A stretch of DNA of 64,000 nt, from NCBI GenBank assembly GCA_965116525.1, contig OZ220694.1:952879-1016878 (forward strand), given 5' to 3'. Below are positions 12,117 to 34,691 of the stretch, piece after piece. The notes below the pieces were generated by a model. It had not been told where the DNA came from, did no database searches, and was given only the letters and a program-made list of their open reading frames with translations. The position numbers were made by a program, and so were the translations under genes. Source of the stretch: an uncultured candidatus Porisulfidus sp. Its GTDB lineage: Bacteria; Pseudomonadota; Gammaproteobacteria; Poriferisulfidales; Poriferisulfidaceae. The first letter of the stretch is position 1. Each line of letters starts with the position of its first letter.

Positions 12117-14292
<2,176 letters not shown>

Positions 14293-14610: not shown

Positions 14611-14616
14611 CGTTGC

Positions 14617-14928: not shown

Positions 14929-15073
14929 GAGGGAAGTTGAACCGTCAGGGGGCGCGTATTCTAGCCAAATCCCGACAGTCTGGCAAACGGCTGGAAGGCG
15001 GCGGAGCCACGCCCAAGTTCAGACTGGCTCCAGAATGCCTGCGTCAATCGGCCTGTGCAAGTAAAATGCTCGG

Positions 15074-17886: not shown

Positions 17887-18618
17887 ATGGCACGTTTTGG
17901 ATACAAGCAGGTTGAGCCGGACGAGAAAACCCGTCTGGTGAACGAGGTGTTCGAGTCGGTGGCGTTCCGCTACGACATGATGAATGACCTGATGTCGTTT
18001 GGGTTGCATCGCGTGTGGAAGCGGGTGTTCACGCTGCTGGCGCAACTTCGGGAGGGCCAGCGCGTTCTGGATCTCGCCGGCGGGACTGGCGACTTGGCCC
18101 AGTTGGTCCGCTCAAGGGTCGGTCCGGATGGACAGGTGGTTTTGTGCGACATCAGCAACGGCATGCTGATGCAGGGCCGGGATCGCTTGCTGGACGAAGG
18201 CCTGACGGACATTCCAGCCGTACAGGGGGATGCGGCGACCCTCCCGTTTGAGTCGGAGTCGTTTGACCGGGTCCTAGTCGGGTTCGGGTTGCGCAACTTC
18301 ACGGATCCCTCGGCATGCCTGCGCGAGATGCACCGGGTCCTGCGTCCCGGCGGGCTGGCGCTCGTCCTCGAGTTTTCCCAGCCGTCCGCCTGGCTGGAGC
18401 CGCTCTACCATGCATACACGCACCAGGCCGTGCCGAAACTTGGCGAACTCGTGGCCGGGGACCGCGACAGTTATCGTTATCTGGCCGAGTCCATCGCCGT
18501 GCACCCGGATCAGCGGACCCTACGCGAGATGATGCGCGCCGCAGGATTTGCGTCCTGCCAATACTTCAACCTGAGTGCCGGGATCGTGGCGATCCATCGT
18601 GGCACAAGGATTGACTGA
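17887..18618 (+). CDS. ubiE: ubiquinone/menaquinone biosynthesis C-methyltransferase UbiE
   Basis: VNEVFESVAFRYDMMNDLMSFGLHRVWKR...VLDLAGGTGD SAM-binding motif. Closing ...NLSAGIVAIHRG is typical of UbiE. Confidence 0.93.
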   Translation: MARFGYKQVEPDEKTRLVNEVFESVAFRYDMMNDLMSFGLHRVWKRVFTLLAQLREGQRVLDLAGGTGDLAQLVRSRVGPDGQVVLCDISNGMLMQGRDRLLDEGLTDIPAVQGDAATLPFESESFDRVLVGFGLRNFTDPSACLREMHRVLRPGGLALVLEFSQPSAWLEPLYHAYTHQAVPKLGELVAGDRDSYRYLAESIAVHPDQRTLREMMRAAGFASCQYFNLSAGIVAIHRGTRID

Positions 18619-19396: not shown

Positions 19397-19463
19397 CGAG
19401 GGTATCCGAATATACTAGTGTTCCGAGCATGCGTGCAAAGTTAAGCACGATTTTTTGGCAATC

Positions 19464-20360
19464 ATGATGCCTGATTCCTACCCTATTATCACGGTGAAGC
19501 CGGAATGGGTTTCGGGGCCCGAGGAAATGGGAAGTAAGACGAAATTCTGGTACAGCAATCTGGAAAGGCAGGAAGCAAATTGGCTTTTCAAATACCCGAA
19601 GCCAGGCACAGGAGAGCATTGGGCGGAGAAAATTTCTGAGCAAGTTGCTCATATCCTCCAGATTACGCACGCAAAGGTCGAACTTGCGGAATTTCAGGAT
19701 GAGCATGGTTCAGTAACGAAATCCTTTACTCGTGGGGAGAAAGACCTATGCCATGGGAATGAAGTATTGAGATGGATTGTTCCTGGCTACGATCCTGAGA
19801 AAAAATTCCATCAGTCGGCGCATACCTTGGAGAATATCTTTCAAGCAATGGAGAGAATTTTTATCTCTACGGAAGCAGCAAGATTTGCAAAAGCACGTAT
19901 TTCGGAATATATCGTGTTAGACGCGTTGGTTGGGAACACAGATCGACACCATGAAAACTGGGGCATTCTGCGCGAGCGAGCGGGCGATGGTTGGAGGGGT
20001 TTTGTGGCACCTTCATTCGACCATGCATCTTCATTAGGCCGGGAGCTTTTGGATGAACGTCGCGATAGGTTTTTGGCAGAGAGACTAGTCGGAGGATATG
20101 TGGAAAAAGGCCATGGCGGGATTTACTGGTCAGAAGACGAGAGGCGTGCTCCTAGCCCTTTGGAGTTGGTGCGTCGTGCGGCTCAACGCCACCCGGAGTT
20201 TTTCCAGGGAGCACTAAAGAAAACACAGAGATTGGATGAAAGTACCATGAAAGATTTGGTGAATCGCGTGCCTGATTCTTGGATGACCCCTTCGGCTCGC
20301 GAATTCGCTATCGAATTGATTCGCTATAATTTTAACCAGATGAGCAATCTCCTTTCATGA
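19464..20360 (+). CDS. HipA-like Ser/Thr kinase, C-terminal kinase-core only (HipT-like)
   Basis: Catalytic-loop motif VGNTDRHHENWG matches HipA_C GNTDDHxKNxS. Putative Gly-rich loop VSGPEEMGSKTKF. ~300 aa, lacking the HipA N-domains. The ORF-track start at 19455 is a TTG; the first ATG is at 19464. Confidence 0.7.
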   Translation: MMPDSYPIITVKPEWVSGPEEMGSKTKFWYSNLERQEANWLFKYPKPGTGEHWAEKISEQVAHILQITHAKVELAEFQDEHGSVTKSFTRGEKDLCHGNEVLRWIVPGYDPEKKFHQSAHTLENIFQAMERIFISTEAARFAKARISEYIVLDALVGNTDRHHENWGILRERAGDGWRGFVAPSFDHASSLGRELLDERRDRFLAERLVGGYVEKGHGGIYWSEDERRAPSPLELVRRAAQRHPEFFQGALKKTQRLDESTMKDLVNRVPDSWMTPSAREFAIELIRYNFNQMSNLLS

Positions 20361-21097
20361 ACACCAAAACCCTATTCCTGGCTTGGCAGGACAAGAACCG
20401 GCGCCAATGGTTTCCGGTTGGCAGGTTGGATGCGGATGTCAGTGCGTCGTTCTACCGGTTCCGCTATGTCGCGGGCGCACAACGGGCGCAAAAGGAAGCG
20501 AAATTTCCACTACTGCTCGAATTTCCGGAAGTACGCGAGGACTACAAGTCTGCGGAGTTGTTCGCACTTTTCAAGAATCGAATTATTGCGTCAGGACGCC
20601 CGGACCGCATGGAGTATCTGCAGAATCTTGACCTCAAGGAGGATGCGAACCCCATCGAAATCCTTTCGGCAAGCGGTGGACGTCGAGCCACAGACTTCTA
20701 CGAAGTCTTTCCAAAGATCGTAAAACAATCTGACGGGAGTTTTACCTGTCGTTTTTTCTTGCATGGCTGGCGACATGTGAGTCCGCATGCCCAAGAGCGG
20801 ATGAGGAGTTTGGAGCCAGATGAAGAATTGTACGTGACGCTAGAGTTAACTAATCCAGCGACAGGCTTGGCGGTTCAGATTCAGACGCAAGACTATGAAA
20901 TGATTGGTTGGGCTCCACGCTATCTTTTAAGCGACTTGGTGGCTGCGATGGCAGATTTCCGAAATTATTCCGCACGAGTTGTTCGTGTGAATCTGCAACC
21001 GGCACCGTCGAGACAACGAGTTTTAGTCGAAATGAGCGGCCGTTGGGTTGATCATGAGCCTATGAGCGGCGAAGATTTTGTTCCGCTTGCTGCATAA
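20357..21097 (+). CDS. HipA-N-terminal-like (HipS-like) domain fused to a C-terminal HIRAN domain
   Basis: The N-terminal half follows the HipA_N 'couple_hipA' pattern (L.L.W...PVGRL.....FYRF.Y...PLLLEFP...ELFALFKNRIIASG, EILSASGGRRATDF). The C-terminal half (LEPDEELYVTLELTNPATGLAVQIQTQDYEMIGWAPRYLLSDLVAAMADFRNYSARVVRVN) matches the HIRAN pattern (L.REP.NP.D..A..V......IGY.PR.LA.....SARVVRV). The start overlaps the kinase stop (ATGA). Confidence 0.5.
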   Translation: MNTKTLFLAWQDKNRRQWFPVGRLDADVSASFYRFRYVAGAQRAQKEAKFPLLLEFPEVREDYKSAELFALFKNRIIASGRPDRMEYLQNLDLKEDANPIEILSASGGRRATDFYEVFPKIVKQSDGSFTCRFFLHGWRHVSPHAQERMRSLEPDEELYVTLELTNPATGLAVQIQTQDYEMIGWAPRYLLSDLVAAMADFRNYSARVVRVNLQPAPSRQRVLVEMSGRWVDHEPMSGEDFVPLAA

Positions 21098-21253
21098 TCA
21101 ACCTAAAGACTTGAAATGTTATTTCGTACATTTCGCACTGAGGTTTTAATCGCTTCACTAATTTTGATAGTGCCATCCTGCACGCTGCCCTTCAGAATAT
21201 TTTGTAATCAGTTTTCGGGCACAGCCTAATTCTGTGCGGCTATCGTTGTCAAC

Positions 21254-23755
21254 ATGAATGACTACTACAAGATACTCCGTGTTTTTATTGCCTCTCCAAG
21301 TGATTTGAAGGAGGAACGAAAGGTAGTTCACGAAGAAATCGAGGAATTTAATCGATCTTGGGCAAGCGAATTCGGATATCGGCTTGAACCAGTTGGGTGG
21401 GAGGAGACCATTTCTGGCTGTGGAAGACCGCAACAACTCATAAACCAAGGCGTGGACCAATGTCATCTTTTCATTGGTATGGTTTGGAGGAGGTGGGGCA
21501 CACCGCCGGACAACGATGGAAACTATTCTTCTGGGTTTGAAGAAGAGTTTGATCGAATGATGAAGCGACGCGAGGAAAACGATCATCTTGAAGTTTCTCT
21601 ATTTCTCAAAAAAATTTCTAGTGAATGCAAGGAAGATCCTGACGAACAACTCAAACGAGTTCTAGAGTTTCGAGAAAAAATGAACGAAGAAAAAAAGATT
21701 CTCTATCAAGAGTTTGAAGAAGCACAAGACATGGCGATATTGGCGCGAGATAAAATCAGAACTTTTGTGAAAAAAGTCAAAGTGGCAGATTCGACTGATT
21801 CCAATCAAGCCAAAGAGAGAAGCCCTGACCTAGAACAACAGAATGAGACAAAGGAAGAACGTGATTCTTCTCTTATGCCTGAAAGCATTATTTTTCTTCG
21901 AGATTTGGTTGAGCGTGTTGGTCAGGAGGGTTCGATGGAAAGCCTTAATGCACCTGACATCGCCCGATTCCGCCTGTTGGCAAATTCGGTTTCAAAACCA
22001 GGCAACCATAAGTTAAGCCTAGGAGTTCACGATGCCAATATTCTTTACTTGCATCATATCAATGGCGGCCTGAAACCCGACAAACGAGAAATTATTTTCT
22101 TAACTAGATTGGGCTTGCATAAGCTTAAGAGCGAGAACGTGCCATTCTGGTGTTGGTATTCTGCAATGTTGGCCTCTGGCCCTGGTGCACTTTTGGCCTC
22201 GTCAATGCATGGTGTCGACGACAATGAGAAGATTGGGGCGATCAGAGTATTAGGCGCATTGGAACTTGATTGGCCAACGAACAAGAACTTGCCCCGGGGA
22301 AAAGTTCTAACTTTCTGGTTTTCTAAAGACTCGTCGGCGAAAGTAAAATCAGCCGCTTTAGGCTACCTTGCAACAATAGGCACGACAGAAGACTACTCTG
22401 TTGCCGAGGAAGAATACGGCAGGGAAGATCACCAGACTTCTCGTAAGGCACTTGAGTGCATGATTGCAATTCTCCTTAGAGCCGGATTAGAAGAAGAAGC
22501 CCAACAATTAGTTCTTGAATCACAATTTGAATCGTTGGACGCAAGCATATTGCAGGCAGTTTTAGAAGGCTTTGATCGCATGAAGCTAGCACTGTTGTTG
22601 ATGGGGGTGGAACACCCTATCTCCCAAGTGAGATTGCATGCATTAAATATTTTGCTTGAACGCAATGAGCTAAGCCAAGATTTAGCAGAACAATTGTGCA
22701 AAGACCGCGAAATTTCAATACGCGACTTGGCAATCAAGGCGCTTTTACAATTAGGTAAACCACTAAGTCAAGAGGAAATTAAGAGAATTTTAACGCCACC
22801 TAAAGCGCGGGTTCAGCGTAGCTTATTTAAAGCATTTGCTCCGGATGTGTCAGATAAACAGGCTGAAATGCTTCTTGCCCGCCATGAATGGGAAAGCTTG
22901 ATGAGGCTTTCTGAATCTGAGCTTACCGCGCAAGTTGAAGATGGCTTAATGTATGAGGAAGTAGCGTATTTTGCACGTGCAGAAAAATATTTTTCTCAGT
23001 ATGCAGGGGAATTGAGACGTGATGTTGATGACTCTTTTGGAGCATATTGGGAAGAGCGGCTTCGACGGACAGAGATTGCTTTTCGTGACCACCCTGCTGA
23101 ACTTGAGGAGATGGTAAAAAAGGACAAGGAGCTAGAAAGCTTTCACCGGAAAGAACTTATAAGACAAGGATTAGATGTCCTATGTAGAGTGGGCGAAAGC
23201 GAGGACCTGCATAGAATTAGGGAACACCTCAATGAAGGTGACCTGGAAGTATCTAGGTTGGATGTGAAGTACCTAGCGAGACATGGCAAATGGAAGGACA
23301 TTCCACTACTGACACAGGCGACTGTTCCATTTGAGGGGATTGCCGAAGGTTTGACCACTTCAATGGCGCGTGAAAAAATTCAGACAGAGATTGCAGAGGC
23401 TGCTCTTAACATGAGTTATGGGCACAATCTATCAAAACTGTTTTCCCTGGATATGCCTGTGGACATCTTAGTGAAAATGATTGATTTGTGCCCCGAATCG
23501 AAATTCTCGGAAATTCCGGATGACGTTCTTCTGAAACTCTTTGATAATGAATTGGCGGACTTTCGCAAGGCCGCGTCCATTAAAGCAGTTCAGACTTTTT
23601 CAAGAGAGCGAATCAAATCAATTCTTCACGCATATGCTACTAGTGACCAGCCCCACTATTACAATGTCATTCACTGGTTGGATGTGGGCGTGTCTATGTC
23701 TCGCAATGAGGCAATGAAGGTGGTGGCTACAGCTTCGGGGGACTTTCCCTCTTAA
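21254..23755 (+). CDS. 833-aa protein: N-terminal DUF4062-like (TIR-like) domain plus long HEAT/ARM-type alpha-helical repeat region
   Basis: The N-terminal segment YKILRVFIASPSDLKEERKVVHEEIEEFN fits the DUF4062 hallmark (FISS..DL.eER). The remaining ~700 aa are Leu/Glu/Lys-rich repeats with HEAT-like units (VRLHALNILLE, IRDLAIKALLQLG). No P-loop or nuclease motif seen. Lowest-GC part of the window. Confidence 0.55.
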   Translation: MNDYYKILRVFIASPSDLKEERKVVHEEIEEFNRSWASEFGYRLEPVGWEETISGCGRPQQLINQGVDQCHLFIGMVWRRWGTPPDNDGNYSSGFEEEFDRMMKRREENDHLEVSLFLKKISSECKEDPDEQLKRVLEFREKMNEEKKILYQEFEEAQDMAILARDKIRTFVKKVKVADSTDSNQAKERSPDLEQQNETKEERDSSLMPESIIFLRDLVERVGQEGSMESLNAPDIARFRLLANSVSKPGNHKLSLGVHDANILYLHHINGGLKPDKREIIFLTRLGLHKLKSENVPFWCWYSAMLASGPGALLASSMHGVDDNEKIGAIRVLGALELDWPTNKNLPRGKVLTFWFSKDSSAKVKSAALGYLATIGTTEDYSVAEEEYGREDHQTSRKALECMIAILLRAGLEEEAQQLVLESQFESLDASILQAVLEGFDRMKLALLLMGVEHPISQVRLHALNILLERNELSQDLAEQLCKDREISIRDLAIKALLQLGKPLSQEEIKRILTPPKARVQRSLFKAFAPDVSDKQAEMLLARHEWESLMRLSESELTAQVEDGLMYEEVAYFARAEKYFSQYAGELRRDVDDSFGAYWEERLRRTEIAFRDHPAELEEMVKKDKELESFHRKELIRQGLDVLCRVGESEDLHRIREHLNEGDLEVSRLDVKYLARHGKWKDIPLLTQATVPFEGIAEGLTTSMAREKIQTEIAEAALNMSYGHNLSKLFSLDMPVDILVKMIDLCPESKFSEIPDDVLLKLFDNELADFRKAASIKAVQTFSRERIKSILHAYATSDQPHYYNVIHWLDVGVSMSRNEAMKVVATASGDFPS

Positions 23756-23870
23756 GAATCCTGTCAGTGACCAAGAGAGCCAGCAAGTTACGAACTGCCA
23801 CATTCCGAAAATCAAGAAGAAACTTGCCATAATAGTATTACTCCGCCAGTGAGAGCATCGCTGGCCCGAT

Positions 23871-23896
23871 GCCTCCTCCGGGAGGCGTTTCTTTTT
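23871..23896 (+). terminator. intrinsic terminator (GCCTCC-TCCG-GGAGGC + TTTCTTTTT) closing the islet
   Basis: Perfect 6-bp GC stem with tetraloop followed by a U-tract. Lies between convergent genes. Confidence 0.7.
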
Positions 23897-23928
23897 AAAA
23901 TTTAAGATTGAGGCCTTTCGGTCAGTGG

Positions 23929-24957
23929 TTACCCGCCGGGCAGGATGATGGCGGGCTTTGACAGTCCACGCTTGGCGCTTCTCTCCGAGGATTCGTCCAC
24001 CGTAACTCCCAGAAAAGTCCCGCCGTTCCGCCGCGTCAGTTCCCGCATCAATCCCGCGAAGCGGCTGGTGGTGTCAGCGTACTTGGGATCGATCTTCTCG
24101 ATCTGCGTCCGGGTAAAGAATCCGACCGCATGAATGCGGACCTGCCGCTTGCCGTCTTGATGGTTGAGGTCGTCCACCGTGTCGATGACCTCTTGGATCG
24201 ATTCGCCGGTGTACTCGTCGCCGAAAATGTACAGGCTAATCTTGTCGGACTTCATGCGAAACCGCTTGATAGCTTCCAATATCCCCTCGACCGGGCTTGA
24301 GTTGCTGTAGGAGTGCCAGGAATCGAAACGCTGCAGGAGGACCTTCCTCCGTGCAGGCGTGTCTGGAATCCAACGTCCCCGGTAGCCGCTGAACATGTAT
24401 GAACCCATGTCGTTCATGACTTGGAGCCCGCGCACTTTCGGGTAGGCATCCAGCAGGGCCACCAGTTGTTGTTTGGCGGCTTCCCAAGCGAACCGCTTCA
24501 TGCTGCCGGACGTATCCACGATGAAAATGATGTATTCGCTGTCGGCCGGGATCCCGCCGATCACGTCGGGCTTGGACGCGGTCAGGTCCAGCCGCCGCAT
24601 TTCTGCGTTGAGGCTTTGCAGCGCGGTTTTCAGGTCTGCCTCGATCAGGGCTTGCGCCTTGGCGCTGGCGTTCGCCTGTTGCGCCTCCTCCACGGCCTTC
24701 CGGTCTTCCTGAAGTTTTTCCTCCTGGGTGCGCACCCGGGCCTGCTCTTTGAGGCGCTCGGAGGCCAGGCCGGCCTGAACCTGCATCACGCGTGCGAGTT
24801 GCTCCTGCAGTGTCTCGATCTGGGCCTGCAGGTCTTCGACCGGTTCGCCCACGGTGTTCTTGGTGATCAGGATCAGCAGCACCATGGCTCCGAACCCACA
24901 GCTGATCACGTCGAGGAACGACAGGTGGTTGTCGGACCGCCGACGGTAGCGCCTCAC
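23929..24957 (-). CDS. ExbD/TolR-like single-pass TM protein with coiled-coil and C-terminal vWA domain (paralog B)
   Basis: N-terminus RRRSDNHLSFLDVISCGFGAMVLLILI mirrors the ExbD/TolR TM helix with the conserved Asp (P[LF]IDV[ML]LVLL). A long Gln/Glu-rich coiled coil follows. The vWA MIDAS motif DTSGS (IIFIVDTSGSMKRF) is present. Confidence 0.7.
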   Translation of the reverse strand: MRRYRRRSDNHLSFLDVISCGFGAMVLLILITKNTVGEPVEDLQAQIETLQEQLARVMQVQAGLASERLKEQARVRTQEEKLQEDRKAVEEAQQANASAKAQALIEADLKTALQSLNAEMRRLDLTASKPDVIGGIPADSEYIIFIVDTSGSMKRFAWEAAKQQLVALLDAYPKVRGLQVMNDMGSYMFSGYRGRWIPDTPARRKVLLQRFDSWHSYSNSSPVEGILEAIKRFRMKSDKISLYIFGDEYTGESIQEVIDTVDDLNHQDGKRQVRIHAVGFFTRTQIEKIDPKYADTTSRFAGLMRELTRRNGGTFLGVTVDESSERSAKRGLSKPAIILPGG

Positions 24958-25997
24958 GGCCAGTCCTCCGCAGGGGCTAGGAACTGCCCGTCGGTTTGCA
25001 TGGCGAACCCCCAGTAGGCACCGGCCGCTGCCGGATCGCCCTCAAGCGGAAGCAAAACGATGTTGAACGGTGGACCCGCGATTCCTTTCGTCGCCGAATG
25101 GAAGAACTCCATGCGCTGGGAGGGGCTGACCCGGTTCTTCTTGAACCAGGATTTCCCTTGTGTTGGCAGGCCGTCCGTAATCAGATAAACCGCATCCGGC
25201 CTGGGCTTCATCCGGGCGACCTTCGCGAGGGTCGTATCCAGACGGGTGCCCCCTGAGGGAACCCAGCCCTGTACCGCCGCGATCACCTCTTCCATCCGCT
25301 TCTCGTCTTTCGCCTGCAGCCATCCGCTTTTCGGCAGCGCCGGCGTCGCCGTGGTACTGAAGCCCCAGACCTGGTATTGCGCCTGCTCCGGCAGGTGCGC
25401 GAGAACCCATTCGAAGATGGAGCGGGCCCAACGCCACTTGTAGCTCTCGATCTGGTACTTGATCGGAAGAAACTTGTTGCGGATGATCGAGGCGATGCGC
25501 TCGTCCTGCATGCTGGCCGAGCGATCCAGCAGGATCAGGATACGGCGTCCCTCGACCCGAAAACCAGCCACGTACTGACGCTGGCCTTCTCCCTCGGTCG
25601 CCCTCAACTGCTTGCTTTTCTTTGCCTCTTGAAGTTTTTGCTTCTGCTTGCGCAACTCCTTTTCCAGCCGAACCGTATCAGACGCTTGCGGTTGGCGGGC
25701 GCGGAGTTCGGCCTGAGTGGTCATGGCGGCCACGCGCTGCTGCGCCAGGCTTTGCAGTTCGCGCCGCAACTGTCTTACCTGACGCTGATGCCCGGCGATC
25801 AGTTCCTCCTGTTCCTGGATGGATTGCTCCAGCAGTTGCAGGTCTCCTTCGCCGCTTTCCGATGCCTGCGCCAGCTCAGTCAGGTTGTGGTCGATGATCA
25901 GGAACAGCAGAACCGCGGCTCCCAACCCGCAAGACATGACATCCAAAAAGGCCAAGCCGAACGGATTCAGGAAACGGTTGCGTCGACGCCTGGACAT
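24954..25997 (-). CDS. ExbD/TolR-like single-pass TM protein with coiled-coil and C-terminal vWA domain (paralog A)
   Basis: N-terminus RRRNRFLNPFGLAFLDVMSCGLGAAVLLFLII with the TM Asp. Coiled coil (QLRRELQSLAQQRV...). vWA MIDAS motif DRSAS (ILILLDRSASMQDE). Same architecture as the downstream gene, indicating tandem duplication. Confidence 0.7.
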   Translation of the reverse strand: MSRRRRNRFLNPFGLAFLDVMSCGLGAAVLLFLIIDHNLTELAQASESGEGDLQLLEQSIQEQEELIAGHQRQVRQLRRELQSLAQQRVAAMTTQAELRARQPQASDTVRLEKELRKQKQKLQEAKKSKQLRATEGEGQRQYVAGFRVEGRRILILLDRSASMQDERIASIIRNKFLPIKYQIESYKWRWARSIFEWVLAHLPEQAQYQVWGFSTTATPALPKSGWLQAKDEKRMEEVIAAVQGWVPSGGTRLDTTLAKVARMKPRPDAVYLITDGLPTQGKSWFKKNRVSPSQRMEFFHSATKGIAGPPFNIVLLPLEGDPAAAGAYWGFAMQTDGQFLAPAEDWP

Positions 25998-26909
25998 TCA
26001 AAAAGAGAGGGCCATGCAGCGGTGGGCCTGTTCGTCTTCCGGAAGCGTGGCAGCCAAGTCGGGGTAAGTTTCGGGCGCAGGATTGCTACAGCAGGGCAGG
26101 CCCAGCCCTTGCTCCGGCAGCGGCAGCGCCTGTGTCAATGGGGGCAGCAGCAAAAGCTCCAGTTCCTCCGTATCGAGAGCGACTTCCGGCCAGCGGGCCT
26201 GGAAGATTCTTTCGTCCAGCGTCACGAGCCGGGAGTCCAGGCGGAGTTGTATCTGTTCGGGCTTCTCGGCAAAGGCCCGGCGCATCTGCCCGAACAACTG
26301 CTCGCGGTTTGCCGCGAGATTACGGTGTATGTCGAAGCGGTGCTGGGTCGCGAATGCCTCCGCGACATTCTCTATCCACTGGACGAAGAGGTGGTAGAAC
26401 CCGAAATCTCCGTATTCCCGGACCGATTCCAGCCGTGCCTGGCCCGGCTGGATGTCAATGGTGCTGATCCAGCTTCGGCTGCGTCCCAATTCTATGATTC
26501 CGTAACGTCCGGGCGAGAGATCCCGGGCTGCCAGCAGCGCGGTCGGGAACACGCCGCGGGGCGTATAGCCCAAGGCTTCCAATACGCCCAGCAGAGATTC
26601 GAGCCGCGGTCGCCCGATTCCTCCACTTACCGAAAGATCGACCGGTCCCCCTCCTTCCGGCAGGAATTCCTGCAGTTGAAAATACGCCAGATCGATGTAT
26701 GACGGGCTTCGGCCTTCTTCCGGCTCTGGAGCTTCGAGATATTCGTTGTTTTCGCTGCCGGTATGTTTCGGTTGCAGCTGTTCGCCGGCTTCTCCTCCGA
26801 ATTGCCAGCCGGCCTTCGCGTCATGGCGGGCGATGCACCACTCGGTCTGCCATTCGGCGCCGTTGGGTTGTGTCAGCGCGTAGCTGTCGATCCTAAGCAG
26901 CTGGGTCAT
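25998..26909 (-). CDS. hypothetical cytoplasmic protein co-operonic with the MotA/ExbB-like gene
   Basis: No TM segments and no recognisable motif. Start chosen at MTQLLRIDSY; the ORF track extends to 26969. Overlaps the stop of the upstream gene. Confidence 0.45.
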   Translation of the reverse strand: MTQLLRIDSYALTQPNGAEWQTEWCIARHDAKAGWQFGGEAGEQLQPKHTGSENNEYLEAPEPEEGRSPSYIDLAYFQLQEFLPEGGGPVDLSVSGGIGRPRLESLLGVLEALGYTPRGVFPTALLAARDLSPGRYGIIELGRSRSWISTIDIQPGQARLESVREYGDFGFYHLFVQWIENVAEAFATQHRFDIHRNLAANREQLFGQMRRAFAEKPEQIQLRLDSRLVTLDERIFQARWPEVALDTEELELLLLPPLTQALPLPEQGLGLPCCSNPAPETYPDLAATLPEDEQAHRCMALSF

Positions 26910-27798
26910 CTGTCCGCGTCCGCTCCCGCAGGTAACGCAGCAAGTGGTGCTGGCAATGTTCCTGGGCATCCAGCACCAGCGACTCTTGGGCTTCCTGGAG
27001 TTTATGCAGCAGCAGCATGATGAACAGGCTGATCAGCAGGGCCACGAAAGTTGAGTTGAACGCCACCCCGAGGCTTTCCGTCACCGGGCCGATGTTGCCG
27101 CGCGTGGCTTCCTCGGCCTGCCCCAGGGCCGCGCCGATTCCGCGCACCGTCCCGATGAATCCGAGCGACGGGATAGCCCAGGTCAGGTAGCGCACCAGCG
27201 ACAGTTCGGTGTCTTGCCGATCCGACTCCATTTCGCAGCTCGCCTTCATGGCCGCGGTGGCATCCGACACGGAATGCGTGGTGAAGAAGCGATCCAGGCA
27301 GGTATCGGCGGCCCGATACAGCACGGTGCTGCCGTAGCCTTGCATTCGCGCGTGCTCGCGGACGTCGGTGAAGCGCGCCCGGTCCTGTGCCTGAGGCAGG
27401 ACCAGGTCGGTTTCCCGGGTTTCCAGAAAGCTTTCCTCGTCATGCCGGCCGCGCAGGCTCAACAGCCTGCGCGCGAAGCGCAGTTTCAGCAGTTTCATCC
27501 ACATGATGGCGAGCGCCCAGAACAGGGCGACAAAGCAGGCTTCCTGCTCGTAGTCCTTGACGATCACGGCAATTCGCGCCCCGAGCGTCGGCGGTGCTAT
27601 TTCGGTCTGCTCCTCGGCGACAGCCTGGCGTTGCAGTTCCTCGTAGGCGACCGGCCGCACCACCAGTTCATAGGCTGCATGCACCACCACGAACGACAAT
27701 GCCAACGCCAGCAATTGCCAGAACACCTCGTGTTCGCGCCAGTTTTCGGCCAGAGTTGTCCACTTAGATGTCACTGGGCATGTCCACGGCTTCGTCAA
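26893..27798 (-). CDS. MotA/TolQ/ExbB-family proton-channel protein
   Basis: C-terminal IPSLGFIGTVRGIGAALGQAEEA....IGPVTESLGVAFNSTFVALLISLFIMLL matches the MotA_ExbB signature (LGLLGTV.G...F.....A........IA.AL..T..G). N-terminal TM helix plus a long cytoplasmic loop. Confidence 0.75.
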   Translation of the reverse strand: MTKPWTCPVTSKWTTLAENWREHEVFWQLLALALSFVVVHAAYELVVRPVAYEELQRQAVAEEQTEIAPPTLGARIAVIVKDYEQEACFVALFWALAIMWMKLLKLRFARRLLSLRGRHDEESFLETRETDLVLPQAQDRARFTDVREHARMQGYGSTVLYRAADTCLDRFFTTHSVSDATAAMKASCEMESDRQDTELSLVRYLTWAIPSLGFIGTVRGIGAALGQAEEATRGNIGPVTESLGVAFNSTFVALLISLFIMLLLHKLQEAQESLVLDAQEHCQHHLLRYLRERTRTDDPAA

Positions 27799-27988
27799 GG
27801 GAGATGGTTTCCTTCGGAGTCAGTTGCTTGAGCGTGATCGACGGGATTTCCTGCTTGAGGTCCTCTTCGGTCAGGATCTCGATAATCTCCCGGTCCTCCT
27901 CATCTTCTCCTGCCTGCGGCGCAGGGGGCTCTTCGGCCCATGCCAAGGCCGTCGCCGCGAAAAGGGGCATTAGCCAGAGCCGCCTCAT
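27764..27988 (-). CDS. small secreted acidic protein (signal peptide)
   Basis: 74 aa, signal peptide MRRLWLMPLFAATALAWA, then a highly acidic sequence. Overlaps both neighbours in the operon. Confidence 0.4.
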   Translation of the reverse strand: MRRLWLMPLFAATALAWAEEPPAPQAGEDEEDREIIEILTEEDLKQEIPSITLKQLTPKETISLDEAVDMPSDI

Positions 27989-29820
27989 GGCGAATCCAGG
28001 TAGTAGGCCAGCCGGAATCCCACATCGTCCTTGGGATCGCGGTCGTAGCGGCGGCTGCTCAGGCTCAACTCCTTGCGCCCGCTGTCGCGCCAGCCGAACC
28101 CCCGGATGACATAGTATCGGCCGCTGGCTTCACCCAGCGGATTGACCCGCTCCGTTTCCGGGCGCGCCGAGATCCGCAGTTTGTCGAGAAACACGTCGTG
28201 CATCCATTCCGCCACGTTGCCCGGCAAATCATACAACCCCCGGGCCGAGGGCGGAAAGCTCCCGACATCGGCACTGACGGCATGCCCGTCGTTGTATCCC
28301 TCCAATACGGGCTGCACGATGTCGGCGGCAGAAGCATCCGCTAGATTGCCGAAGCGATTCGGAGGCGGCATGAAATCTCCCCAGGCGTACCGCTTTTCGG
28401 AGCGGGTCAGCCAGACCCACTCGGCCTCGCTTGGCAGGCGGTACCCAGTCGCGTTCGCGTCGAATCCCTCGATCCGTCCGTCGCGCACCCGGTAGAACGG
28501 CGAGACGCCCGCCTGTTCGCTCATCCAGTTCGCGAAGAGCGCCGCATCCGTCCAGCTGATCCGTACGACCGGTTGGCTTGCTCGACCCAGTCGCTTGCCG
28601 AAAACCTCTCCGGAGTCATGTCCGGCCTGATAGCGTTGGTACAGGGCGTTGGCGACCTCCCTGTCCATGATCGCAAACGGCCGCGTCAGGCGCACCGGGA
28701 TACGGCGACGGGTGGTCGCGATCTCGAACGAACCGCGAGGCTGGAACTCAATGAAGGCCAACCCGAGATCCTGCTCGTGCTTCTGGCGCCGGGATTGTTC
28801 GACTTTCGCCTGTGATTGCAGGACTGCGAAAAGTTGCTTCGGCGCATCGGGGTGCGGCACCACGACATACTTCTCGGATATGTAGCCCGGCGCGGAGACT
28901 TCAATGGTGTGCGCCTGCTGAGACAGCCGCAACTGACGGCGGAGTTCCACTCGCCCGTCAACGCGAACCGTCGCGTTGGCCGGGGTCGGCCACAGTTCAA
29001 GGGTGCCGGTGCGGGGGGCCAAAGTGGCTGTGTGGCTTTGCTGGCCGGATTTCAGCTTCAAGGTTTGACGGTTCGGGGTATGGCCGGGGAGCAGCAGAGC
29101 GACCTCCACCTTGGTGTCCGGCGTCAGCGCGATCTGTTTCGGGGTGTGGCCCCGCCAGGTGCCATCAATCAATATGTCCGCGGCCTCAGGCGTACTGGAA
29201 ATCGTGAGCAAGGCGGGCTTTGCGACTTTCTTGAGTGGGATCTCGATCTCGGTCAGTCGCCCGTATCCTTCAATTTCCACCGTCTGCCGGTGCGTCTCGA
29301 AACCTTCCACGCTGACCCGCACAACATGATCACCCGGAGAGAGGTCTTCCAGTGTTTCGCCGATCCTTCCCGTGTGTTCGCCATCCACCCGGACTTCTCC
29401 TTCGGTTTCGGGTGTCGTAGAGACCCGGAGTCTGCCCGGGAGGGGTTCCAGGGTCACCTGCACGGTGCGGGGTGCGTCCCCGCCCGCCTCGAATTCCACC
29501 TGCCGGGAGCGATAACCCTCTGCCGCCACGCTCGCGGTGTGTCGGCCCCGCCAGAGCAAAGCCTGTCCGCCCACCATCACGTGTGGGCTCTCGACATGTA
29601 CCGCGGCCTCTACAGGGTCGGTCTCGAAGTTGATTAACTGTGCTTGTTCCGTGGCGTACCAGGCGCCGGCCGTCAGTAGCACCAGGAGAAAAACCACCAG
29701 CCCTGCCCCCCGAAAACGTGGCGGCGACGATCGACCCCGGCGTCCCTTCCGCTCGGGAGGTTGGTAGGGACGGGCCTGAACCGGCTCGTGGTCGAGAATC
29801 ACTGGATCGACTCCGTGCAC
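27985..29820 (-). CDS. membrane-anchored protein with tandem PEGA domains and C-terminal formylglycine-generating-enzyme (FGE-sulfatase/SUMF1) family domain
   Basis: N-terminal TM (LVVFLLVLLTAGAWY). Repeated PEGA-like units (VRVDGEHTGRIGE, ILIDGTWRGHTP, VRVDGRVEL). C-terminal RISWTDAALFANWMSEQAG...YRLPSEAEWVW...GNVAEWMHD...GFRLA is the FGE-sulfatase fold signature. Confidence 0.7.
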   Translation of the reverse strand: MHGVDPVILDHEPVQARPYQPPERKGRRGRSSPPRFRGAGLVVFLLVLLTAGAWYATEQAQLINFETDPVEAAVHVESPHVMVGGQALLWRGRHTASVAAEGYRSRQVEFEAGGDAPRTVQVTLEPLPGRLRVSTTPETEGEVRVDGEHTGRIGETLEDLSPGDHVVRVSVEGFETHRQTVEIEGYGRLTEIEIPLKKVAKPALLTISSTPEAADILIDGTWRGHTPKQIALTPDTKVEVALLLPGHTPNRQTLKLKSGQQSHTATLAPRTGTLELWPTPANATVRVDGRVELRRQLRLSQQAHTIEVSAPGYISEKYVVVPHPDAPKQLFAVLQSQAKVEQSRRQKHEQDLGLAFIEFQPRGSFEIATTRRRIPVRLTRPFAIMDREVANALYQRYQAGHDSGEVFGKRLGRASQPVVRISWTDAALFANWMSEQAGVSPFYRVRDGRIEGFDANATGYRLPSEAEWVWLTRSEKRYAWGDFMPPPNRFGNLADASAADIVQPVLEGYNDGHAVSADVGSFPPSARGLYDLPGNVAEWMHDVFLDKLRISARPETERVNPLGEASGRYYVIRGFGWRDSGRKELSLSSRRYDRDPKDDVGFRLAYYLDSP

Positions 29821-30578
29821 CGGATATCAAGAGTGGTGGGCTTGCCGGGGCGCACTTTCAATGTCGCGCGCGCGTCCCGGTATCCGGGCCGGCTGGCGAC
29901 GACGATATAGTCGCCGGGCACCAATTGCATGGTCTGGCGCTCAAGTCGGCCGAGTTTTCCAACCCCATAGATTTCGATGTCGGACTGGTTGTCCGAAGTC
30001 AGGACCAGGGAGACCGGGACCTGCACCAGCTTGAGGGTGGCGACAAGATCTGTGAGAGCCTTGGCAATCTTCCGGTCATTGAGTTTCTTTTCCCGGACGT
30101 AGGCAATCCACTCTTTCGCCCGCGCCCGTATGACCTTGTCGTACAGGCCGTCCGGTAGTTTCAACGCGTCCAGCCGCCGGTGCGCCTCGATGTACAGGGT
30201 GACCTGCTCACGGCCTTGATGTGCCGCCTTCAGGTACGGAGAGATGGCCAGTGCCTTGAGATAGGCAGTGTCCGCCGCCTGCCAATCCTCTCGCTGCTGT
30301 GCTGCGGAGGCCTCGTTCAGCAAAGGCCGGGTCTGCTGGAACTGGAGTTCTGCCCGCGCTTGCTGAAGATAGTCCCGGGCCCGCTGCCCGTCCACTTGCG
30401 CCCACAGTTTCGCCGCCCGCGCCCAGTCCGCATCAAGCGTCGCACGGAGCGCCCGTTCCTGAAGATTCTCGGCTGCGGCGGTTCCTGCGGCCAATCCCAC
30501 CGCCAGCGCCAACACAACCGGGATCAGTTCAGGCCGCCACGTTCCGACAGATAGATTTCGTTCAGGATTTCGTGCCAC
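29799..30578 (-). CDS. periplasmic TPR-like protein with C-terminal PEGA domain
   Basis: Signal/TM LIPVVLALAVGLAAGTAAA. Helical TPR-like repeats (AKLWAQVDGQRARDYLQQA..., YLKALAISPYLKAAHQG). C-terminal DIEIYGVGKLGRLERQTMQLVPGDYIVVASRPGYRDARATLKV is PEGA-like. Confidence 0.55.
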   Translation of the reverse strand: MARNPERNLSVGTWRPELIPVVLALAVGLAAGTAAAENLQERALRATLDADWARAAKLWAQVDGQRARDYLQQARAELQFQQTRPLLNEASAAQQREDWQAADTAYLKALAISPYLKAAHQGREQVTLYIEAHRRLDALKLPDGLYDKVIRARAKEWIAYVREKKLNDRKIAKALTDLVATLKLVQVPVSLVLTSDNQSDIEIYGVGKLGRLERQTMQLVPGDYIVVASRPGYRDARATLKVRPGKPTTLDIRCTESIQ

Positions 30579-31702
30579 TGCTGGTACTGGTCTTCAACCG
30601 AGCCGGTAAGCGTGCGTGTCTGGTTCTCCACCTGTACGACCTGGGGTTCCACTTCAAGGTCGAGGGACTGGCCGAGCTCCTTGAGTGCGGCCTCGTGGAT
30701 TTCTGATGCCTCGTAGTCCTGGTAGGCATCATAGGCGCCGTAGGCTCCAGCTCCGACCAGTACCTGGCCGAGCTGCCGCGCCTCCGGGGTGGAACCGGAA
30801 TCGGCCGCGATGACGACCCCTCCGATGATGGCCAGCGCACTCAAGAGTCCCTGTGCCACGCTGGCCGTAACATTCTCGTCGTGCGCGCGCCGCTCGTAGA
30901 AACTCTGCCGTGCCCAGTCCCGATATGGCGCATCGAGTGCCTCCGCGAAATTCTCCGAGTATTCCTGCAGGGTTTCGATGAACAGGTCATCGCGCTCCTT
31001 GATCTGCAGCACCAACTGGTACAAGGTGTCTTCTTTGGCGGGCAGCGAGACCAGCCGCACGCGGCCATCGTCCACGGTGACATGGCGCTTGAATGCTTGC
31101 GGTGCGAATTCCCTCGCGAACCGCAATTCCGCGACGGCGCGGATTTCCTTCATGGCCGCCACGCCTTTCCGGTCACGTTCGATCAAGAGGTCTTTCGCGA
31201 TCCGGTCGAACAAAGCGTCCATCGGGCGGGCCCTGTCTTCGCCGGCATAATCGGTTTCACTGAATTCATGCTGGTAGACGCGGTCGACCCATTTCGCACC
31301 GGTCGCGTCGTAGGCACGTATTTCAAGTTCCAGTTCGGAACCGTTGGATTCCAGGACCGTGCCTTCGATGCGAAGGTCCGGGACCGCGCGTTCCGGCACC
31401 ACCCACACGTGCCGCCAGCCGCCGCCGCGCAGCATCGCCTGCCGCAACTGCTGGGGGAAATACAGGGTTTCGGCTTTCCGCACCTGGCGGAACACTTCCC
31501 CTTCGGCCACCTGCTCCTCGTCGACTTTCCCCTCGAACTGAACGATGCCGGCATCCAGGTACCACTCTTCCGGCACGGGCTCGCCGGCCGGCTCTTCCGA
31601 GCGGTCGCCGAGCAGGGTGCCATAGCCACCCCCCATCTGGCACCCGCTGGCCAAGGCCAGCAGCAGCGCGAGCAGGGCTATCCGTCTTGCAGGCTCTTGC
31701 AT
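30524..31702 (-). CDS. probable lipoprotein of unknown function
   Basis: Signal peptide with lipobox-like LLALASGC. 392 aa, no recognised domain. Confidence 0.5.
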   Translation of the reverse strand: MQEPARRIALLALLLALASGCQMGGGYGTLLGDRSEEPAGEPVPEEWYLDAGIVQFEGKVDEEQVAEGEVFRQVRKAETLYFPQQLRQAMLRGGGWRHVWVVPERAVPDLRIEGTVLESNGSELELEIRAYDATGAKWVDRVYQHEFSETDYAGEDRARPMDALFDRIAKDLLIERDRKGVAAMKEIRAVAELRFAREFAPQAFKRHVTVDDGRVRLVSLPAKEDTLYQLVLQIKERDDLFIETLQEYSENFAEALDAPYRDWARQSFYERRAHDENVTASVAQGLLSALAIIGGVVIAADSGSTPEARQLGQVLVGAGAYGAYDAYQDYEASEIHEAALKELGQSLDLEVEPQVVQVENQTRTLTGSVEDQYQQWHEILNEIYLSERGGLN

Positions 31703-32517
31703 TTCTCTTCCAGGTGTTTCCGGACTTCAGGGTCTTCTTCCCGCTCCGCCAGTTCGCAGACCTGCCGCGTCACGATGTCGTCGTCCCGGTCATAACCGTG
31801 CGAAGGACGGGTCTTGCCGGTCGGGACATTGCCCGGGACCTGCCCTTCGGCGGTTCCGCCGCGCTTGGCGTCGTCCTCTCCGGCGCCCCCTTCGGCATCG
31901 CCTTCAGTTTCCCACGCCGGCGAGTCTTCATCCGGCATCGATCCGGCGGTTCCGCCCCCGTCGTCCTGTTCCTTGCGGGCCTGGGCACGCGCATCCAGCA
32001 GGATCTGGTCGACACGGTTCAGTATCGCCTCGGCGCGGGCAAGATTTCTCTCTTGTTCTTCCTCCAGACTGCCCTGCCCGGCAAGTTCCGGGTCTCTTTC
32101 GAGTTCATCTTCGAGCCCGAGGTCTTCAGTGCCACCGGCCTCTTCCTGTTTCGCAAGATCCCGATCTTCTCCCTTCTGGCCTGGAAGGCCCAGATCTTCA
32201 GGGGGGCCCTCCTCGGAAGACGGCGTGTCAGAGGCTTGCGTGGACGGGGCATCCCCTCCGGCTTGTTCTGCGGATTCCGGGTCTTGCTCCACGGAATCTT
32301 CAACCGAGGGCATGGTGGCGGAGGAATCTTCCACTTCGGCATCGTCGGTGGATGCCTGCTCCTGCTGGGCCTCATCCGAAATCAGCCGCACGGCGATTTG
32401 CGGCGCGAAATCGGAGCCGATAGAAAAAGGCGATTCTGTCGCGTGGCCAGTGCTGCCAAGCGATACCAGTAGCCCCAGCGAAAGCAGGCGCGCGTACGTC
32501 GACATGGTTTTAGGCAT
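31678..32517 (-). CDS. secreted, extremely acidic low-complexity protein
   Basis: Signal peptide MSTYARLLSLGLLVSLGSTGHA. D/E/G/S-rich compositionally biased sequence. First gene of the minus-strand operon. Confidence 0.45.
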   Translation of the reverse strand: MPKTMSTYARLLSLGLLVSLGSTGHATESPFSIGSDFAPQIAVRLISDEAQQEQASTDDAEVEDSSATMPSVEDSVEQDPESAEQAGGDAPSTQASDTPSSEEGPPEDLGLPGQKGEDRDLAKQEEAGGTEDLGLEDELERDPELAGQGSLEEEQERNLARAEAILNRVDQILLDARAQARKEQDDGGGTAGSMPDEDSPAWETEGDAEGGAGEDDAKRGGTAEGQVPGNVPTGKTRPSHGYDRDDDIVTRQVCELAEREEDPEVRKHLEEKCKSLQDG

Positions 32518-32589
32518 TATAGCGGGAGGGCCTTACATCAATCTATAATTTGAGGAGGAGTCTACCGCTCTGGAAGCGGTCGTCCGCTT

Positions 32590-33150
32590 ATGCTCGTCTC
32601 GCTTTCTGCCCTTATTGACCAAGCCCTGCGCACCGACGCGGAAGCACAGAAGCGCCTTCAGGCGATGGGGCAACGCACGATCCGGCTGGAACTGCTCCCG
32701 TTGCCTGCCATCGGGTTGCGCATAGACGATGGGCGGTTGATCGTAGAGTCTCCGGAAGAACAGGCGGATCTCGCAGTTCGCGGGCATTTGGCAGCCTTTG
32801 TCCGGTATGTGGTCAGTGGCCGGGCCGACGGCATCCGCCTGGAAGGCGAAGGCGAGATTGCGCAGGATTTCCGCGACTTTCTATCTACCCTGGACATCGA
32901 CTGGGAGGAACTGCTGTCCCGCGCCGTCGGCGACGTGCCGGCCCGGCTAATGATGCGGACCGTCGAGGAATGCCGGCAGGTGGCCCGGAATTTCGGCACC
33001 GCGGCCGAGAGCAACACCCGGGACTATCTGCACGAGGAGTCGGGGTTGCTGCCGAACGCTTCCGATCTGGATCGTTTCGTGCGCGAGGTGGACCGACTCC
33101 GTGACGACTTGGAACGGTTTGAGCTGAGGCTCGACCGCATTCGGCCATGA
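32590..33150 (+). CDS. ubiJ: ubiquinone biosynthesis accessory factor UbiJ (SCP2 domain)
   Basis: 186 aa, SCP2-like N-terminus ([37 protein letters not shown]...). Immediately upstream of ubiB, as in ubiE-ubiJ-ubiB. Confidence 0.75.
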
Positions 33151-34691
33151 ACTGGCAAGGGCGCGTTATCGCGCGACCGCTCTATATCCCGTGGGTGCTG
33201 TTGCGCCACGGTCTCGACGAAATCGTCTTGTCCCGGTTCCGGCTGACCCGCGGATTGATGTATTTGCTGCCCTGGCATTGGTTCCGCCGGTTGCGGCGGC
33301 CGAAGGCAGAGCGCATCCGGCGCGCACTGGAGGACTTGGGACCCATTTTCGTCAAATTCGGGCAGATGCTGTCGACTCGGCGCGACCTGTTGCCCACCGA
33401 CCTGGCCGACGAACTGGCCCATCTCCAGGATCGAGTGCCGCCGTTCGATGGCGAGGCGGCCCGAAAGGCTATTGAGCAATCGCTGGGGCGGACGGTTCAG
33501 GAGATGTTCAGCCAGTTCGACACGACACCGCTTGCTTCCGCTTCGGTGGCCCAGGTGCACGCGGCGCGCTTGGGCGATACCGATGTCATCGTCAAGGTGT
33601 TGCGCCCCAGAATCGAAAAGACGATCCGCCGTGACATCCGGCTGCTGTACAGGCTGGCCCGGTTTGCCGAGCGTTGCTGGGCGGGGTCCCGTCGTCTGCA
33701 TCCAGTCGATTTGGTGACCGAATACGAGGGGATCATCTTCGACGAACTGGACTTGACGCGCGAGGCCGCCAACGCGAGCCAACTGCGGCGCAACTTCGAG
33801 CACAGCGAACTGCTGTACGTGCCGGAGGTGTACTGGGATTACACGTCGAGGAACGTCATGACAATGGAACGCGTGTACGGGATTCAGATCTCGGACCGCG
33901 AGGAATTGCTGCGCCACGGGGTTGACCTGAAATGCCTGGCCGAGCGGGGCGTGGAGATCTTCTTCACCCAGGTGTTCAATCACAACTTCTTTCACGCCGA
34001 CATGCATCCCGGGAACATCTTCATTTCCCGGGAAACCCCGGAGTCGCCGAAGTACAGCGCGGTGGATTTCGGCATCATGGGGTCGCTGTCGGCTTTTGAC
34101 CAGCGCTATCTGGCCCTCAACCTTGCAGCCTTCTTCAACCGTGACTACCGGCGGGTGGCGGAACTGCACGTGGAATCCGGTTGGGTTCCATCTGGCACCC
34201 GGGTAGAAGAGTTCGAAGCAGCCATCCGCACCGTATGCGAGCCGATTTTCCAGCGGCCGTTCTCCGAAATCTCGTTTGCCAACCTGTTGTTGCGGCTGTT
34301 TCAGACTGCAAGCCGATTCCAGATGGAAGTGCAGCCGCAATTGATACTACTGCAGAAAACCCTGGTCAACATCGAAGGCGTCGGTCGCGAACTGTATCCG
34401 GATCTCGACCTGTGGACCACCGCCAAACCCTTCATAGACCGCTGGGTGAGCGAGCAGACCGGCCTGCCTGCGCTAATCCGGCTTGCGCGCCACCGCCTGC
34501 CGCAGTTGATCGAAAGTCTTCTCGGAGACTCCGCTGCCGCTCTCCCGCCGGACCCCTCCCCGGCACTTCGCACAGAACTGAAGGCCTCCCGGCGCAAACT
34601 GAAACGCGCCCGTATCGGATTGACGATTGCCATCCTCGTGGCATTCGCGGCGGGGGGCTGGCTGGCGCTGCTTCACTGGGGGGGCGGATGA
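33147..34691 (+). CDS. ubiB: ubiquinone biosynthesis protein kinase-like UbiB
   Basis: [20 protein letters not shown]...[11 protein letters not shown]...DMHPGNIF motifs of the ABC1/UbiB family. C-terminal TM helices. Confidence 0.92.

Follow-up and report, generated by a model that had tools for sequence, protein, structure and literature searches.

What kind of machine is encoded where a proton-channel gene of the MotA/ExbB type stands next to two genes for membrane-anchored vWA proteins? This question is raised by a locus of an uncultured Candidatus Porisulfidus species (Gammaproteobacteria; GenBank assembly GCA_965116525.1, contig OZ220694.1), of which we analysed a stretch of 64,000 nt (positions 952,879 to 1,016,878, here called the window; all coordinates below refer to it unless stated otherwise). 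The locus consists of nine genes on the minus strand, running from 32517 to 23929, which we number g1 to g9. MotA/ExbB-type 5:2 motors power flagella, TonB-dependent uptake, the Tol-Pal system, the type IX secretion system (T9SS) with gliding, and Zorya defence. An original prediction, made from the letters of the window, had read the locus as an envelope machine with stator-like subunits, and the conservation of the pore threonines, of the aspartate-bearing helices and of the vWA heads with their metal ion-dependent adhesion site (MIDAS) now supports this reading of the architecture. We consider it fairly probable that the operon encodes an envelope-spanning machine of the motor-plus-scaffold kind, with a proton channel of the MotA/TolQ type and the 5:2 class at its centre.

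The nine open reading frames (ORFs) are consecutive and tightly packed, and neighbouring ORFs abut or overlap by 4 to 55 nt, which agrees with the predicted nine-gene operon with overlapping starts and stops. An independent gene caller gave the same nine genes in the near-identical strain L002 (GCA_001752985.1). The closest genomes are metagenome-assembled genomes of sponge-associated 'Candidatus Porisulfidus', with chromosomes of about 1.6 Mb. Comparison with three Ca. Porisulfidus-type relatives gave dN/dS ratios of 0.06 to 0.32 for all nine genes; by this measure all of them are under purifying selection and are therefore real and functional.

To see how widely the locus is conserved, as had been proposed with the original prediction, one genome per GTDB species was scanned. 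At least 558 stretches were found to encode relatives, and 82 loci were fetched for comparison. The order g1-g2-g3-g4-(g5)-g6-g7-g8-g9 is kept in these loci down to 35-40% identity, in lineages that include Ca. Porisulfidus, Pseudohongiella, Halieaceae, Microbulbifer, Cellvibrionaceae, Kineobactrum, Maricurvus and Lysobacterales. Among the 82 loci, g6 was found in 79, g7 in 81, g4 in 74, g3 in 66 and g2 in 60, and a second vWA gene comes after the first in 78; loci that lack a component mostly lie on truncated contigs. Judged from this comparison, the shared gene order is far beyond chance.

The channel subunit is g6 (26893..27798, about 300 aa, 293-301). Its predicted membership of the MotA/ExbB family was borne out by the Pfam profile MotA_ExbB (PF01618), which it matches with 46.6 bits (cutoff 22.9, E 3.5e-12), and its best NCBIfam match is TolQ (7e-5). 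In channels of this family the pore is lined by threonines of the last two transmembrane (TM) helices, T145 and T178 in TolQ and T148 and T181 in ExbB, and a proline precedes the first of them. When g6 was aligned to Escherichia coli TolQ (8odt) over these two helices, T217 corresponded to T145 and T250 to T178. Without exception, the 79 homologues keep T217, T250 and P210, so that the possibility raised earlier as fatal to the prediction, a MotA-like protein lacking the channel residues, does not apply. Hydropathy analysis of g6 gave three hydrophobic segments (aa 25-50, 88-106 and 245-263), and a fourth, pore-lining TM helix at about aa 205-225 can be read from the TolQ alignment. Together with the charge distribution, these segments suggest a MotA-like topology of four TM helices with a conserved cytoplasmic domain of about 95 residues (aa ~107-200). 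No tolR-, exbD- or motB-like gene is present in the cluster of the window or in any related locus.

In the place where such a gene might stand, the operon encodes g8 (24954..25997, 347 aa) and g9 (23929..24957, 342 aa). Both consist of four parts, namely a basic N-terminus, one TM helix, a helical stalk of about 100-105 residues and a vWA domain; the sequence of the stalk is variable but helix-forming. The helix reads LAFLDVMSCG in g8 and LSFLDVISCG in g9, and its Asp (D19 in g8 and D16 in g9), lying within FLDV[MI]SCG, is invariant in 78 of the 78 homologues of each paralogue. We take the motif [FL][IL]DV[ML] of these helices to match that of ExbD and TolR. The invariance of the Asp in both helices and of both pore threonines over 78-79 homologues argues for a working channel. 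By the positive-inside rule of charge, the basic N-termini would place the stalks and vWA heads in the periplasm.

The vWA head of g8 matches the Pfam families VWA_3 (31.4 bits) and VWA_2 (27.2 bits), both just above the cutoff of 27. Its MIDAS residues are D158-S160-S162, T251 (in 72 of 78 homologues) and D275. The head of g9 is diverged, with D148-S150-S152, S220/S221 replacing the Thr, and D247, and these conserved residues are present in 76-78 of 78 homologues. The DxSxS motif is kept in 78 of 78 homologues of g8 and in 77 of 78 of g9. From this motif and from the BLASTP match between the two proteins (3e-10 over aa 2-154), g9 is clearly a paralogue of g8, and the retained metal-site residues predict that both heads bind metal. 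Relatives of g8 are numerous: among 1.84 billion representative proteins, 203 clusters matched at E<=1e-30 and 489 at E<=1e-10, and the best 150 matches are mostly about 330-370 aa in length. A search of PDB sequences with the g8 profile returned only coiled coils and ATP synthase subunit b, and the vWA alignment had no relatives in 2.9 million viral contigs.

This combination of a channel gene and a vWA gene pair has a published counterpart. In 'Origin and Evolution of Bacterial Periplasmic Force Transducers' (Mol Biol Evol, June 2025, PMC12204202; section 8 and Fig. 4c,d), motors of a trans-pore-helix (TPH)-vWA/TolQ-like kind are predicted. The paper describes tolQ-like genes of Proteobacteria that are tightly linked to vWA proteins, with no tolR or exbD, and gives no function; the vWA proteins carry a TolR/ExbD-like trans-pore helix with a conserved Asp and occur 'predominantly in heterologous pairs', and an AlphaFold 3 model of 5:2 stoichiometry places their helices inside the pentamer next to the Thr ring (PMC12204202). 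The seed of that family is from Idiomarina loihiensis. The operon in the window is, by architecture, a member of this predicted class and shows all of its architectural features: an adjacent tolQ-like gene, no tolR, exbD or motB, and a heterologous pair of Asp-helix vWA proteins, the last in 78 of the 82 loci.

The gene g4 (27985..29820, 611 aa) encodes the largest protein of the operon. It is laid out as a cytoplasmic tail of about 37 aa, a TM helix (aa 38-56), four beta-sandwich modules of about 70 aa each and a C-terminal domain of the sulfatase-modifying, formylglycine-generating enzyme (FGE) fold; it has no lipobox and is anchored by the N-terminal TM helix, which makes it a bitopic inner-membrane protein by hydropathy. 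Pfam gave FGE-sulfatase with 104.6 bits (8.7e-30) and PEGA with 74.1 bits (8.2e-21). Three PEGA repeats followed by an FGE domain had been predicted; both kinds of domain are there, but in a per-module scan PEGA passes in only two of the modules (aa 126-200 and 198-272), the two flanking modules of about 70 aa failing. The window copy is shorter than the family norm of about 700 aa.

Among solved structures, the T9SS ring lipoprotein PorK (9myj/9mzu) is the closest relative of the domain at the C-terminus of g4 (about 6e-14), and true FGEs come marginally behind it (about 6e-13). One question put forward with the original prediction was whether the FGE domain retains its catalytic cysteines. 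It does not: the Cys pair of the RGGS.xC....C.RYR segment is missing in g4 (RGFGWRDSGRKELS), as it is in the equivalent of PorK (RGGSWKDVARFIRS). This segment of g4 reads RGFGWRDSGRKELSLSSRRY, without Cys, and the family keeps R573, G574, W577 and R590 and no Cys. An active formylglycine-generating enzyme was therefore rejected as the function of g4. Both the relationship to PorK and the shared lack of the Cys pair favour the analogy with GldJ/GldK drawn earlier, although g4 reaches only 65.6 bits against the NCBIfam GldK equivalog, whose cutoff is 350.

Upstream of g4, the gene g3 (29799..30578, 259 aa) encodes a secreted periplasmic protein. Its start is uncertain, and the gene caller gives an alternative of 213 aa. 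It has a helical N-terminal half and a PEGA-like beta-sandwich at the C-terminus, and belongs to a family of TPR plus PEGA-like proteins of about 500-520 aa (median ORF segment 519.5 aa). A TPR-PEGA protein had been predicted here. TPR_2 does pass in a full-length homologue (positions 3794-5299 of the related locus L079; 37.4 bits), but in the window copy PEGA (17.3 bits) and CarboxypepD_reg (22.4 bits) both remain below cutoff and no TPR was detected.

The three remaining exported proteins comprise, as predicted, one lipoprotein and two acidic secreted proteins. The lipoprotein is g2 (30524..31702, 392 aa), with the lipobox LALASG-C21 after its signal peptide, the Cys being present in at least 90% of homologues. 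Its N-terminal alpha/beta domain is of the PelC/CsgG/TolB-N/flagellar basal-body-ring type, matching PelC, CsgG, TolB-N and a flagellar basal-body protein of an LPHT-ring structure, a fold that occurs in several ring-forming outer-membrane proteins. This domain is followed by a long helical hairpin with a hydrophobic Gly-rich tip (aa 281-331) and then by a small C-terminal domain.

The first gene, g1 (31678..32517, 279 aa), encodes an acidic low-complexity secreted protein with a signal-like N-terminal segment and 25% Asp plus Glu. A hidden Markov model (HMM) of the family that occupies the same position in distant loci, found in 56 loci, matches g1 with E 6.7e-7. The dN/dS of g1 is 0.22-0.32. 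The family is highly variable in length and sequence, and some members have a lipobox where others have a plain signal peptide; all have a C-terminal module of about 45 aa with the consensus DDDvVARQlREAAm.E.DPeLRekLWdEYRkYk, or in short form DDD[IV]V.RQ...DPE.R.

The other acidic protein, g5 (27764..27988, 74 aa), is small, has a signal-like N-terminus, contains 24% Asp plus Glu and evolves with a dN/dS of 0.10-0.15. In 63 of 74 loci a small ORF with such an N-terminus lies at this position, directly upstream of the MotA-like gene. Its C-terminus carries a near-invariant motif, F-x-P-[ST]-E-x-I-S-E-D-x-x-V-x-F-P-x-D-I-COOH, in which E(-15), S(-12), D(-10), P(-4), D(-2) and I(-1) are invariant or nearly so (63-64 of 64). 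The strict motif was found in 63 of the 79 loci having g6. An ending of the form P.D[ILV] terminates only 77 of the 16,358 ORF segments of the loci, and 64 of those 77 are the full g5 motif. The window copy ends in ...KETISLDEAVDMPSDI and keeps all invariant positions.

The ninth gene, g7 (25998..26909, 303 aa; alternative start 26969), had been left undescribed in the original prediction. Sequence and models indicate two RNase-H-like lobes, that is, the actin/Hsp70 (ASKHA) fold, and the protein has neither a signal peptide nor a TM helix, so that it would be cytoplasmic. The window copy is C-terminally shortened, with 303 aa against about 446 in the family, and covers HMM positions 1-309 of 451. 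The phosphate-1 (DxG) and phosphate-2 (DxGGGT) loops were not found in g7, the family consensus at these places being VLELND.. and HLDLQLHQ, without the glycines. The g7 profile returned only noise or coiled coils from PDB sequences, and a search for natural g6-g7 fusions as a sign of contact found none. A role of g7 as a PilM-like binder of N-terminal tails was considered and set aside, the tails of g4, g8 and g9 not being conserved.

In free-living relatives (Maricurvus nonylphenolicus, Microbulbifer sediminum, Kineobactrum sediminis and Pseudohongiella) the same genes form part of a longer co-linear cluster of about 13 genes. The first gene of this cluster encodes TPR repeats and a weak TonB_C-like C-terminus (18 bits against a cutoff of 27.1), and after g9 there follow two lipoproteins without a known family (about 215-230 aa) and a BepA-like M48 protease. 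These extra genes lie at positions 3-1268 and 12082-15060 of locus L079 and were also found in L025, L062 and L065; none of the four is present in the 64-kb window. In the window g3, g4 and g7 are shorter than the family norm, yet under purifying selection. With the extra genes absent and these three shortened, the symbiont operon is a naturally minimised version of the machine.

How such a machine may work can be sketched as follows. Five g6 subunits would stand around a g8/g9 heterodimer, the two proteins, encoded as a heterologous pair, taking the place of ExbD/TolR/MotB with one Asp helix each. The usual periplasmic domain is replaced in each by a helical stalk of about 100 residues and a MIDAS-bearing vWA head, and proton flow via the Asp/Thr site would turn or pull (retract) the dimer. 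The stalk, about 15 nm long, would hold the vWA heads roughly level with the PorK-like domain of g4; because this length is similar to the reach of the four Ig-like modules of g4, the heads would meet that domain. Through their metal sites the heads may grip an acidic (carboxylate) ligand, for which the invariant Glu and Asp residues of the C-terminal peptide of g5 are the most obvious candidates and g1 is another. In this way inner-membrane energy would be coupled to a periplasmic and outer-membrane scaffold made up of g4, g3 and a putative g2 ring. On the cytoplasmic side, g7 may dock on the conserved domain of g6 as a scaffold or regulator and is probably not an ATPase.

The most likely output of the machine is force-dependent maintenance of the outer membrane or envelope, or assembly of an outer-membrane complex, though we hold any specific output with far less confidence than the motor-plus-scaffold reading itself. 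Envelope maintenance is favoured because a BepA-like protease and lipoproteins are co-encoded in free-living relatives and because the operon was retained in a symbiont chromosome of about 1.6 Mb.

Several points weigh against the motor-plus-scaffold reading. The two stator-like proteins had been called ExbD/TolR-like; their helices with the invariant Asp agree with this, but Pfam ExbD (PF02472) matches neither the full g8 and g9 nor, at E<=10, their N-terminal 51-52 aa, so that the label rests on the motif and the genomic context. Likewise, MIDAS-bearing vWA domains had been predicted in both proteins, and both do carry DxSxS, but all vWA matches of g9 in Pfam fall below cutoff, whereas g8 exceeds it. 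The part proposed for g7, whose nucleotide-binding loops are not conserved in the family consensus, is tentative. The motor class itself is so far defined by computation only, and the ligand of the MIDAS is a candidate only. We infer the stoichiometry, the rotation and every protein-protein contact, and the output process is a guess from neighbouring genes that the window lacks.

A more specific version of the motor-plus-scaffold reading may also be put forward, tentatively and as something we think rather unlikely to hold. Functionally, the operon may stand for a new class among the 5:2 motors: a 'catch-and-pull' device driven by protons, whose rotating or retracting axle would end in two integrin-like MIDAS heads that reversibly grip the invariant acidic C-terminal peptide of g5, a small secreted protein dedicated to this purpose, and possibly g1. 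The heads would work against the g2 ring lipoprotein and the PorK-like g4 scaffold, with the nucleotide-free g7 as a cytoplasmic platform, for an envelope task general enough to survive the reduction of a symbiont genome. Nothing in Ton, Tol, Mot, Gld, Agl or Zorya corresponds to this set of components.

The main rival to the motor-plus-scaffold reading is a dedicated secretion or export apparatus, either T9SS-like or of the Pel/curli type, in which a ring formed by g2 in the outer membrane would be driven by the motor so as to let out a protein or polymer, g1 and g5 being substrates or pilots. Much of the scaffold can be viewed in this light: the best solved match of g4 is PorK, the fold of g2 is also that of PelC and CsgG, the proteins of export rings in the outer membrane, exopolysaccharide exporters commonly include TPR proteins like g3 and the product of the first gene of the free-living cluster, and both g1 and g5 combine a signal peptide with disordered acidic stretches. 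However, a beta-barrel translocon, a glycosyltransferase, a polymerase and an ATPase are all missing from the 82 clusters. The score of g4 is far from the GldK cutoff, the protein is membrane-anchored and not a lipoprotein, and homologues of PorL, PorM or PorN were not detected. The motif of g5, moreover, is conserved like a binding handle and not like cargo. We therefore regard dedicated export as a doubtful explanation, albeit the one to be taken most seriously after our own.

Surface motility or adhesion of the Agl-Glt type would have the TolQ-like motor move on a cytoplasmic actin-like track (g7) and transmit force to a vWA adhesin. Gliding in Myxococcus reportedly involves a TolQR-like motor, MreB and the vWA adhesin CglB, and here, too, an actin-fold protein and vWA domains are encoded beside the motor. 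But their tether in the inner membrane keeps the vWA domains from the cell surface, the clusters showed no outer-membrane barrels of the Glt kind, and g7 lacks nucleotide-binding motifs, so that dynamic filaments are unlikely. It also speaks against motility that a sponge-associated symbiont lineage, whose chromosome measures about 1.6 Mb, has kept the operon, and we judge this reading improbable.

Still less probable is an envelope complex of vWA and TPR proteins as in Bat, with the MotA-like protein serving only as a membrane anchor and no proton-driven work being done. BatA-E operons encode membrane-anchored vWA proteins together with TPR proteins, and this likeness is shared by the operon described here. 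The Bat operon, however, has no MotA-like channel, whereas in the window the vWA anchors carry an Asp pore helix; MoxR AAA+ and DUF58 genes are absent from the operon and from the 82 related loci, and the invariance of the helix Asp and pore Thr residues argues for a working channel.

An anti-phage defence of the Zorya kind, with a MotAB-like sensor of envelope perturbation, can hardly be entertained, for although Zorya is built on a 5:2 MotAB-like motor and the operon adjoins a low-GC island with the PADLOC candidate systems PDC-M03 and PDC-S60, PADLOC gave nothing significant for any of the nine proteins (ZorA, E 0.032, 11 bits), on which ground the candidate was rejected, the cluster encodes neither a nuclease nor a helicase nor any other effector, the near-identical strain L002 lacks the island, no relatives were found in the 2.9 million viral contigs, and the co-linear order and content conserved across several gammaproteobacterial lineages are atypical of defence systems.

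The surroundings of the operon were also inspected. The low-GC island (19455-23755, plus strand; GC 0.46 against 0.61) lies immediately 3' of the operon and encodes PDC-M03A (a HipA_C kinase, E 7.5e-84), PDC-M03B (HIRAN, E 2.1e-78) and a PDC-S60-like DUF4062 plus HEAT protein of 833 aa (E 8e-27), all of them candidate defence genes of PADLOC. Because strain L002 has only an NYN-domain gene at this position, the site is a strain-variable insertion hotspot. The operon, the island and a gene for an outer-membrane protein are flanked by ubiE (17887-18618) on one side and by a ubiJ-like SCP2 gene and ubiB (32590-34691) on the other, so that the usual ubiE-ubiJ-ubiB arrangement is split in this lineage by about 14 kb of inserted genes. 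A scan of 23500-33000 for promoters and terminators gave counts no higher than in shuffled sequence. A GC-rich hairpin of 9 pairs followed by a T-run (23868-23889), between g9 and the convergent gene for the 833-aa island protein, is the sole terminator-like site near the 3' end of the operon, in a scan that as a whole was not above the shuffled background.

With regard to novelty, the gene set had been described as unrecognised, being neither Ton, Tol, Zorya nor Bat. The latter part is upheld, and no experimentally characterised system was found to match; the core, however, has been described in PMC12204202. That paper does not mention PEGA, an FGE/sulfatase domain, the actin-fold gene, the lipoprotein or the small motif protein ('sulfatase' and 'PEGA' have zero occurrences). 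No paper on the accessory set came up when the literature was searched for MotA/ExbB together with PEGA, FGE-sulfatase, vWA or actin-like proteins. The motor core is thus already known computationally, while the accessory set, the PorK-like link, the actin-fold partner and the g5 motif are new as far as the searchable literature shows.

Each time the partner set of such a motor came to be understood, it showed another way of sending inner-membrane energy outward. The present class swaps the usual domain of the inner dimer for metal-dependent adhesion heads. The locus provides a full list of parts, in a minimal symbiont version of nine genes and in a version of about 13 genes in cultured marine gammaproteobacteria, and the PorK-like link to the T9SS, the actin-fold partner and the g5 motif as a candidate ligand make what was an AlphaFold-based suggestion experimentally tractable.

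Finally, the operon was compared with the known systems closest to it, among which we also count the PilM/GspL/FtsA-type actin-fold scaffolds of envelope machines. With Zorya ZorAB it shares a MotAB-like 5:2 core that carries an unusual extension and serves a non-flagellar purpose; in Zorya, however, the extension is the cytoplasmic tail of ZorA, joined by the effectors ZorC, ZorD and ZorE, whereas in the window it would be periplasmic, and no effectors are encoded. The likeness to TolQR-TolA-Pal and ExbBD-TonB extends to the channel family, the Thr ring, the Asp-helix motif and the sending of inner-membrane energy towards the outer membrane. It ends at the inner dimer: g8 and g9 lack the periplasmic domain of ExbD/TolR, the window has no TolA/TonB, TolB or Pal, and the dimer itself would transmit the force. 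Moreover, g6 apparently has four TM helices like MotA, not three.

The T9SS motor, GldLM/PorLM with PorK/GldK-PorN, is likewise of 5:2 stoichiometry, with an inner dimer that crosses the periplasm and an FGE-fold protein without the Cys pair. Its motor subunit is GldL, whereas g6 belongs to the MotA/TolQ family, and its inner dimer is GldM, where the operon would have a helical stalk with vWA heads. In place of an outer-membrane lipoprotein, the window has g4 held on the inner membrane via PEGA spacers, with a score of 65.6 where the GldK model requires 350; the cluster lacks PorL, PorM, PorN, SprA and all other T9SS genes, and the hosts are Gammaproteobacteria. On the whole, the operon would work most like GldLM-PorKN, in that its inner dimer is extended and reaches a scaffold of the PorK type, and would resemble Tol and Ton in directing force towards the outer membrane.

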